A stretch of DNA of 64,000 nt from assembly GCA_041690135.1 (NCBI GenBank), contig JAWLHY010000003.1, positions 256,001 through 320,000 of the forward strand, in the 5' to 3' direction. Source of the DNA: Armatimonadota bacterium. GTDB lineage: Bacteria > Armatimonadota > SYMT01. The stretch's first letter is position 1. Every line of letters starts with the position of its first letter. Shown here piece after piece: positions 30,301 through 31,722 of the stretch. The translations under genes were made by a program, and so were the position numbers. The notes beneath the pieces are model-generated. The model saw nothing but the letters and a program-made list of their open reading frames with translations. It did no database searches and had not been told where the DNA came from.

Positions 30301-31722
30301 ATCCGCTCGCCGCTCACCTGCGAGCTGCGGCAGGGCATCTGCGCCAAGTGCTACGGCCGCGACCTGGCGCGCGGCGGCCTGGTCGAAGTCGGCACGGCGG
30401 TGGGGATCATCGCCGCCCAGTCGATCGGTGAACCGGGAACGCAGCTCACGATGCGGACCTTCCACACCGGTGGCGTCGCGGCCGAGTACCTCACCGGGGT
30501 CGCCGAAGTCAAGAAGAAGAAACAGGAGACGCTCCGCCTCATCCACAACGACATCGAGCAGGGTATCGTGGCGTTCGGTGAGGAAGGCAACGAGCGCGAA
30601 AAGGTCAAGGCCATCCAGGCGGTGCTGAAGGTGCTCGAAGAACAGGTCCGCGGCCTCCTGCGGGTCGTGGAGCTGTTCGAAGCCCGGAAGCCGAAGGGCC
30701 AGGCGATCATCTCCGAGGTGGACGGCCTCGTGGCGGAGATTCCCGCGAAGGGTCTGCGCCAGGTGGTCATCCATACGGAAGAGAACGTCGAAGATCGCTC
30801 GCGGGTGGTCGGGGAAGTCGCGGCCGAGGACATCTACGTCCCCGAAACCGATAACCTGATCATCAAGGCCGGCGACCAGATCGTCGACAAGATCTACAAG
30901 GAGATCGTCAACCAGGGCTTCACCACCGTCAAGCTCCGCAAGAGCCATATGGTGCCTTACCGCGGTTACCTGGAAGTCGAGGCCGGCCAGCAGATCCGCG
31001 CCGGCGACCGGCTGACGGAAGGCCCGCTGGACCCGCACCGCGTGCTCGATCTGCAGGGCGTCCGCGGTGTCCAGGAATACCTGGTCCGCGAGATCCAGGC
31101 GGTCTACAAGAACCAGGGCGTGGACATCAACGACAAGCACGTCGAAATCATCGTCCGCCAGATGCTCAAGAAGCGGAAGATCGTCCACCCGGGCGACACC
31201 CGCTTCCTGCCGGGCCAGGTGGTCGACAAGTTCGAGTTCGAGGATGAGAACCAGCGCATCACCAACGCCGGCGGCACCGCCGCGACGGCCGAATGGATGC
31301 TCCTGGGGATCACGGAAGCCTCGCTCCAGACGGAGAGCTTCCTGTCCGCGGCCTCGTTCCAGAAGACGACGCGCGTCCTGACGGAAGCGGCGGTCCGCGG
31401 CAAGCGCGACCACCTGCAGGGCCTGAAGGAGAACGTCATCATCGGCCGCCTCATCCCGGCGGGCACCGGTCTGCCGCGCTACCGCAACCTGGAAGTGGCG
31501 GTGGAGACGGAAGACGGCCAGTACGAGCCGGTCCGGCCGCTCGCCCGCAGCTCCAGTCTGCACGACGACGGCGGTCGGGGCGAGGAGTACAGCCAGGCCG
31601 AGCTCCGGGCTCTCTCCGGCGCCGAGCCGGTGGCCGATGGCGGCAGCCAGGTCGACGAGGCCCTCGCCTCCCTCGGCTTCGAGATGACCGGCCCCGGCGG
31701 CGACGAGGACGACGAGGAGTAA
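27328..31722 (+). CDS. rpoC: DNA-directed RNA polymerase beta' subunit
   Basis: CHCG...CDRC zinc finger, NADFDGD active site, [29 protein letters not shown]. Confidence 0.99.

Follow-up and report, generated by a model that had tools for sequence, protein, structure and literature searches.

The DNA analysed here (the window) is a 64,000-nucleotide stretch of the genome of an Armatimonadota bacterium (assembly GCA_041690135.1, contig JAWLHY010000003.1, positions 256,001 to 320,000), which carries rpoB and rpoC, the latter encoding the RNA polymerase β′ subunit. The element in question is an additional segment in the trigger loop of this β′ subunit. All cellular RNA polymerases have this loop as their moving catalytic element, and insertions there, such as SI3 of Escherichia coli, govern how fast the enzyme runs, how it pauses and how factors reach it. 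The protein contains Rpb1 domains 1–5 in order, every one above its curated Pfam cut-off (PF04997, 268 bits; PF00623, 131; PF04983, 94; PF05000, 48.5; PF04998, 226), and rpoC is a single-copy gene, as PF04998 is matched only once in the whole 9.1-Mb genome. The bridge helix is present, as are the Met, Arg and His of the trigger-loop motif MRTFH, and the reading frame is open through the additional segment, without stops, at a guanine-plus-cytosine (GC) content of 0.62–0.63 (local range 0.59–0.72).

The trigger loop of RpoC consists of residues 1042–1051, followed by 57 amino acids (aa), A1052–R1108, and then by residues 1109–1120. That such a stretch separates the two trigger-loop flanks had been claimed in an earlier, sequence-only reading of the window, and the translation of positions 30391–30750 and of the whole open reading frame bears it out. 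The net insertion amounts to 51 aa (V1058–R1108, positions 30499–30651), because, counted from the G of GEPGTQ, the R of RV.ELFEA lies 78 residues away here and 27–30 in loops devoid of the insert. The insert-free range holds for all 22 readable trigger loops of an outgroup, a single phylum sampled at 24 loci in other genomes (the remaining two lack the pattern) and reached via a metagenome-assembled genome (MAG) that carries an apparently mis-binned Armatimonadota contig. These 22 loops all read ...GGVAxxDITxGLPRV. The cross-phylum comparison comprised this outgroup, Firmicutes, phytoplasma and Caldilinea proteins, and PDB chains, among which the Firmicutes β′ chains found by phmmer align up to HTGGVAGEDIT and resume at qvRGLlRV, opposite ITQGLPRV. 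In E. coli, the trigger-loop residues that contact the nucleoside triphosphate (NTP) are M932, R933 and H936, and the mobile part is described as comprising TH1a, the loop and TH2a, with a Gly/Pro hinge on either side (PMC4227799). The insertion leaves the NTP-contacting residues untouched: in an alignment of 107 relatives over residues 801–1399, to which all counts out of 107 refer, the M, R, T, F, H, G and G of the first trigger helix are invariant.

At the junctions, the motif DITxGLPRV was said by the sequence-only reading to be lost, with its Pro changed to Leu. The substitution stands (L1111 in 107/107), whereas the DIT part is split and altered rather than simply lost. A-E-Y-L-T-G (1052–1057) occupies the position of G-E-D-I-T-Q in insert-free enzymes, and G-L-L-R-V (1109–1113) that of G-L-P-R-V, with T1056, G1057 and G1109 invariant in the 107 relatives. 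Other members of the phylum show ATITG or THITG ahead of the insert. In one family (f15), TYITGG precedes the insert and TYITPAGSLPRV follows it, so that a directly repeated motif brackets the insert; this is also the only family seen in which the hinge Pro is retained, the residue being lost in all other insert types seen. The flanking repeat TYIT...TYIT may reflect the way in which the insertion came about. In E. coli, SI3 precedes DIT (...GGTKDITGGLPRV). If YLT is the equivalent of DIT, the insert would lie about five residues beyond the SI3 site, between TH2a and the second Gly/Pro hinge. The C-terminal junction, E-[DE]-Q-V-R-G, faintly resembles E-D-I-T-Q-G, and if this were the true DIT equivalent, the insertion site would coincide with that of SI3.

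The fold of the insert was predicted with AlphaFold2 in two runs, one on residues 801–1464 (107 sequences, mean predicted local distance difference test score (pLDDT) 72.4) and the other on residues 1025–1130 (78 sequences, mean pLDDT 55), both models being read through their DSSP assignment and pLDDT. The larger model has a helix at 1035–1046, a break at TGGV, a helix at 1051–1077, a coil at 1078–1088 and a helix at 1089–1117; in the smaller one, helices at 1048–1077 and 1089–1119 enclose a coil at 1078–1088. The two runs concur on the helix and coil boundaries, and no strand is found in the insert. The hydrophobic moment, averaged over the 107 sequences, peaks at 100° for both arms (1.59 at 100° vs 0.74 at 170° for residues 1058–1078; 1.44 vs 0.24 for residues 1089–1108). 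It also peaks at 100° when residues 1089–1120 are taken as a single stretch (1.31), so the amphipathy of arm 2 continues in phase through G1109 into the second trigger helix. Pro is missing from both arms, except at position 1106 in 2 of the 107 sequences, and invariant Gly is found within the insert region only at 1057, 1079 and 1109. The three strongest covarying pairs all lie within arm 1, at spacings of i+3, i+4 and i+7. Regarding length, the insert measures 54–60 aa by pattern match in 118 of 119 close homologues, the remaining one filling the insert columns in the alignment. The variation is confined to the tip loop, bounded by G1079-x-V-x and by the ERER at the start of arm 2; this fits the prediction for a solvent-exposed hairpin tip, and in other lineages the tip loop is expanded by 10–50 aa.

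With low to moderate confidence, the insert is predicted to fold as a two-armed α-helical hairpin of about 20 residues per arm, which would be roughly 30 Å long by our own estimate from helix geometry. At the same low to moderate confidence, arm 2 and the second trigger helix would constitute one continuous helix. An α-helical insert continuous with the second trigger helix had already been proposed from the sequence, and both DSSP assignments, as well as the in-phase moment through G1109, support it. Searches for look-alikes were uninformative about the insert: those of residues 1040–1125 in the ESM Atlas reached best scores of 0.82–0.83, under the lead threshold of 0.9, and a Foldseek comparison of the large model with the PDB returned RNA polymerase β′ chains only, which says nothing on the insert.

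The insert is well conserved among the 107 relatives. Mean pairwise identity is 0.81 in the insert and 0.86 in its arms vs 0.75 in the rest of residues 801–1399. Twenty-three columns of 1052–1108 are invariant, 21 of them inside the net 51-aa insert, and they include T1056, G1057, V1058, A1059, V1061, K1062, Q1066, D1075, G1079 and the motif LKVLE (L1100–E1104). The lysines at 1062–1065 are each 96–100% conserved, and a basic cluster is found at the same early place in most diverged insert types. Judged by these identities, the insert is more constrained than the remaining C-terminal portion of β′, unlike what would be expected of a neutral spacer.

Features of the rpoB–rpoC locus and of the β′ trigger loop, with positions in the window and residue numbers in brackets
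Feature	Position	Strand	Basis
rpoC, RNA polymerase β′	27328..31722	+	Open reading frame and translation, 1464 aa; five Rpb1 Pfam domains
First trigger helix (1034–1049), NTP-contacting M1042, R1043 and H1046 intact	30427..30474	+	Translation, alignment
N-terminal junction VAAEYLTG (1050–1057), YLTG at the position of DITxG	30475..30498	+	Alignment to insert-free loops
Arm 1 of the predicted hairpin (1058–1077), amphipathic helix	30499..30558	+	AlphaFold2 DSSP, hydrophobic moment
Basic patch KKKK (1062–1065) on arm 1	30511..30522	+	96–100% conserved
Tip loop (1078–1088) after invariant G1079, the variable part	30559..30591	+	AlphaFold2 coil in both models; insertions and deletions
Arm 2 of the predicted hairpin (1089–1108), L1100–E1104 invariant	30592..30651	+	AlphaFold2 helix, alignment
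C-terminal junction and second trigger helix (1109–1120), hinge Gly kept, hinge Pro changed to Leu	30652..30687	+	Translation, alignment; hinge as described in PMC4227799
rpoB	22405..26487	+	Same window as rpoC
Uma2-family gene, 202 aa	26599..27207	+	PF05685, E 1e-26
Additional β′ stretch (145–301)	27760..28230		Comparison with Firmicutes β′
Zinc-ribbon-like insertion in β (933–965), 33 aa	25201..25299		CTGC...C...C; weak Pfam Zn_ribbon_SprT match

The distribution of the insert was followed at several depths. Among the best 120 homologues of the protein, every named one belongs to Armatimonadota or Armatimonadetes. A phmmer search with the 55-aa insert segment against 1.84 billion representative proteins gave 22 matches at E≤0.001, comprising 20 RpoC proteins or RpoC fragments that bear the insert and two unrelated repetitive proteins. 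A scan of 185,579 species genomes with two insert motifs yielded 172 stretches, 150 of which were confirmed. The titles of the best 80 confirmed loci name Armatimonad* in 36 cases, Chthonomonad* in 24 (including a Chthonomonas calidirosea MAG) and Abditibacteriota in one, with 16 unclassified and three others; the trigger-loop distance is 77–84 in 78 of these 80, the other two being cut by contig ends. The three others look mislabelled or mis-binned: they are Armatimonadota-type rpoC genes in MAGs labelled Actinomycetes and Actinomycetota, on contigs that belong to the window's own family, and on a 3.5-kb contig of a Dehalococcoidia-labelled MAG, which is probably mis-binned, as the phylum mates of that MAG are insert-free.

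Within the phylum, the canonical insert is matched in 270 of 401 genomes and in 201 of the 300 high-quality ones (E≤0.01). Four families have no canonical match at all (f9, 0/4; f10, 0/47; f15, 0/18; f17, 0/5), and in the non-matching families an insert is found at the same site in all nine genomes whose trigger loop was read, with distances of 79 in f17, 86 in f9, 88 in f32, 87 in two genomes of f15 and 123–139 in four genomes of f10. The same holds for all five genomes read from weakly matching families (distances of 77, 80, 80, 105 and about 127); in one f3 genome (G031, 80% complete), the flank query found no match. The insert, canonical or diverged, is thus present in every Armatimonadota family sampled, and the suggestion that it might be phylum-wide is supported by the 270 canonical genomes together with the 14 same-site inserts in 14 genomes from the non-matching or weakly matching families.

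The diverged inserts fall into recognisable types. Family f10 represents the Fimbriimonadaceae type, and the RpoC of Fimbriimonas ginsengisoli is 80% identical to it over the region. In Fimbriimonadaceae, F. ginsengisoli included, the trigger loop contains about 96–112 extra residues with almost no likeness to the canonical insert. Families f9 and f32 represent the Fervidibacter type, with a diverged insert of 59–61 aa. Fervidibacter-type RpoC proteins also have HTVVG or HTVIG in the first trigger helix, where HTGG is near-universal, and the phytoplasma and Caldilinea proteins that matched a query with the Fervidibacter trigger loop are insert-free.

A maximum-likelihood tree was built from 35 RpoC fragments by a quick search without bootstraps, after removal of the variable part of the trigger loop. 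The 23 ingroup rows lie on one side of a branch whose Shimodaira–Hasegawa-like approximate likelihood ratio test (SH-aLRT) value is 100. The Fimbriimonadaceae and f15 insert types (node support 98) are nested among canonical rows, and f17, Fervidibacter and one canonical 'Armatimonadia' row are found in a basal polytomy. The simplest reading of the tree would be a single insertion in the common ancestor, a near-ancestral canonical form and later remodelling.

Regarding the origin of the insert, the sequence-only reading had held it to be unrelated to the sandwich-barrel hybrid motif (SBHM) domains, and the comparisons made here agree. Alignment of the insert with residues 942–1135 of E. coli SI3 by hhalign gave a probability of 0.14%, that is, no similarity; the insert profile had no match among PDB chains at E≤10; and a Pfam scan found no family above cut-off on the insert. 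SBHM domains are larger than 51 aa. A degenerate SBHM was rejected on the hhalign result, the lack of a PDB match and the helix-loop-helix predicted by AlphaFold2, and an origin independent of the SBHM insertions is proposed. An internal duplication of the trigger helices was likewise discarded. The hhalign scores of the insert against its own flanks (9.3–9.5) fall inside the range of 20 column-shuffled controls (7.3–17.3), so the resemblances of QETLRLIH to QLTMRTFH and of VLKVLE to LLRVVE are not significant. Inteins have Cys, Ser or Thr as the first residue and again after the insert, end in His-Asn and measure about 130 aa or more. The segment V1058...R1108, which is followed by Gly, has neither the nucleophile nor the His-Asn junction residues and is only 51 aa long, and an intein was rejected.

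The explanation that we favour as a whole, with somewhat better than even confidence, is that an ancient and constrained 51-aa helical hairpin acts as a rigid appendage of the trigger loop and tunes its folding. By analogy with SI3 in E. coli, the hairpin would move together with the trigger loop in each nucleotide-addition cycle. It would lengthen and stabilise the second trigger helix and add a surface-exposed lever to it, and the resulting shift in the balance between the open and the folded trigger loop would change the elongation rate, pausing and intrinsic cleavage. The second hinge is rebuilt, its helix-breaking Pro being changed to Leu and a predicted hairpin added, with Gly kept at G1057, at G1109 and before the tip (G1079). 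The basic patch at 1062–1065 and the invariant LKVLE face would probably engage a specific partner close to the rim of the secondary channel, whether a factor, nucleic acid or the body of the polymerase. In E. coli, the Gly and Pro residues of the hinges are reported to destabilise the folded trigger helices, and with Ala in their place the folded state becomes more stable and nucleotide addition 25- to 300-fold slower (PMC4227799).

Several observations weigh against this explanation. AlphaFold2 confidence is low: in the large construct, pLDDT is 30–44 for residues 1034–1062 and 54–64 across the remaining insert, and in the small construct it is 60–72 over the insert. Covarying pairs between the arms are inconsistent, with position sums of 2155–2163, and follow clade structure, which means that they are confounded by phylogeny. 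With either YLT or the C-terminal E-D/E-Q-V-R as the DIT equivalent, the position of the site relative to that of SI3 is uncertain by about five residues. β′ residues 554–1460 showed no co-occurring ingroup-specific insertion to which the hairpin might dock. A protein of 1146 aa labelled 'Armatimonadetes bacterium RBG_16_67_12' by NCBI is insert-free, being either mislabelled or a true exception. Finally, the insert sequence is nearly unrecognisable in Fimbriimonadaceae, f15 and Fervidibacter, and such replacement implies that the specific contact made by the canonical form is not indispensable.

Cyanobacteria have lost their Gre factors. A comparable loss was considered for this genome and rejected, since four genes with a GreA/GreB domain above the Pfam cut-off are found on four contigs, and the secondary-channel factors have not been abandoned.

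Those four genes also bear on a second explanation, which we consider unlikely: that the hairpin is mainly a docking surface for a lineage-specific transcription factor, a Gre-like factor or downstream DNA, any effect on trigger-loop folding being secondary. The near-invariance of KKKK 1062–1065 and L1100–E1104 would suit such a surface, as would the early basic cluster that recurs in most diverged insert types, and the cyanobacterial Si3 provides a precedent, for which a role independent of the trigger loop, an arch with sigma, has been reported (PMC10120043). The lack of a co-evolving insertion in the part of β′ examined argues against docking, and so does the fact that, apart from the basic cluster, Fimbriimonadaceae, f15 and Fervidibacter have not preserved the sequence of the insert.

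Alternatively, the hairpin could be a static brace, packed permanently on the polymerase body, which would hold the second trigger helix folded and substitute for the Pro/Gly hinge. The predicted continuity of arm 2 with the trigger helix, the amphipathy in phase across G1109 and the loss of the hinge Pro in all insert types seen except f15 are all compatible with it. Nevertheless, we regard a brace as quite improbable: as stabilisation of the helices slows addition in E. coli by the factor given above, a trigger loop that never unfolds should exact a cost, Gly is retained at both junctions, and the low pLDDT fits a mobile element. Still more improbable seems a tolerated surface insertion that is essentially neutral, plays no specific role and became fixed when the phylum was young. 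It would account for the tolerance of the tip loop to expansions of 10–50 aa and for the replacement of the whole insert in some families, but neither the identities of 0.81–0.86 vs 0.75 for the rest and the 23 invariant columns, nor the retention of the insert in every sampled family since the root of the phylum, would be expected of it. An origin of the segment by mis-assembly, by reading through a frameshift, as an intein or through a recent insertion, which would make it an artefact or a mobile element, can be practically dismissed, given an open frame without stops, the same insert in 270 genomes, a GC content within the local range, and a length of 51 aa without the junction residues of an intein.

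The neighbourhood of the insert contains three further features. The stretch separating rpoB from rpoC holds a gene of the Uma2 family, a putative restriction endonuclease. This family occurs in multiple copies: it is matched 13 times in this genome and 11–21 times in some relatives. The N-terminal part of β′ contains about 137 extra residues in comparison with Firmicutes β′, which are acidic and apparently helical and are found at a site where actinobacterial β′ chains likewise begin aligning late. In β, the junction of the Cys-rich, zinc-ribbon-like insertion corresponds to residue 895 of B. subtilis β, and a 67-aa query across it had a near full-length match in 54 of 61 phylum genomes.

In the literature consulted, all known trigger-loop insertions are stated to be SBHM repeats (bioRxiv 10.1101/2021.01.27.428476), and the Terrabacteria phyla listed in PMC11077087 are given there as having no trigger-loop insertions. 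A survey of RNA polymerase insertions from 2024 (PMC11515920) is presented as classifying only BEAN and HABAS domains; its main text names Armatimonadetes five times, never with a helical trigger-loop element, and uses the words 'helical' and 'coiled' 0 times, and its supplement has two Armatimonadetes genomes, apparently for β only. No description of a trigger-loop insert was found for Armatimonadota or, among the papers listed, for Chthonomonas, Fimbriimonas, Fervidibacter or Abditibacterium in a literature search outside which lay the Lane & Darst 2010 catalogue and the β′ tables of PMC11515920. We tentatively suggest, at a little short of even confidence, that the insert is the first described class of non-SBHM trigger-loop insertion: a coiled-coil-like hairpin at the second hinge, with a long Pro-free second trigger helix, folding energetics unlike those of every polymerase studied and an origin within Terrabacteria independent of SI3. 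If this is true, unrelated folds would have given rise to trigger-loop appendages by convergence on at least two occasions, and the present appendage would later have been remodelled within its phylum, enlarged in Fimbriimonadaceae and coupled with the loss of the universal HTGG glycines in Fervidibacter.

A small, conserved, helical and phylum-wide insert would represent a natural experiment on how a different appendage, together with the loss of the hinge Pro, affects trigger-loop folding. The question is directly testable, because the main variants have cultured hosts: the canonical form occurs in Chthonomonas calidirosea (going by the MAG labelled as this species), the enlarged one in Fimbriimonas ginsengisoli and the HTVVG form in Fervidibacter, of which F. 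sacchari is described as an aerobic hyperthermophile (PMC12485897).

Helical decorations of bacterial β′ are not without precedent, since the clamp region of actinobacterial β′ contains a helical, lineage-specific insertion, a two-helix coiled coil. A two-helix coiled-coil decoration is thus an accepted type, but the actinobacterial one is located in the clamp and not in the catalytic trigger loop. At that N-terminal site, the β′ studied here has its roughly 137 additional residues. A close counterpart is SI3 (β′In6) of E. coli and other Gram-negatives, an insertion of 188 aa with two SBHM domains, which is likewise lineage-specific and lies between both trigger helices. According to PMC4227799, SI3 sits 'between the loop and TH2a', inhibits trigger-loop folding and aids hairpin-stabilised pausing, and upon folding it is described as leaving the jaw and contacting the rim helices (PMC11077087). 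The Armatimonadota insert would resemble it in moving with the trigger loop in each cycle and probably affects folding, pausing and the traffic through the secondary channel by similar leverage (PMC4227799, PMC11077087). It differs in being a predicted 51-aa helical hairpin, without sequence similarity to the β-sheet SBHM domains of SI3, and in its place, as SI3 lies before DIT and the present insert follows the DIT-like YLTG, about five residues further on if the equivalence holds. Moreover, Armatimonadota group with SBHM-free phyla. The Si3 of cyanobacteria and plastids is also a trigger-loop insertion kept phylum-wide, with a reported role beyond folding (PMC10895346, PMC10120043), but at about 645 aa it is more than ten times larger, consists entirely of SBHM domains and is found in a split β′ subunit. 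Compared with these systems, the Armatimonadota insert is a lineage-specific trigger-loop insertion of different fold and size and of independent origin, and its site is probably different too.

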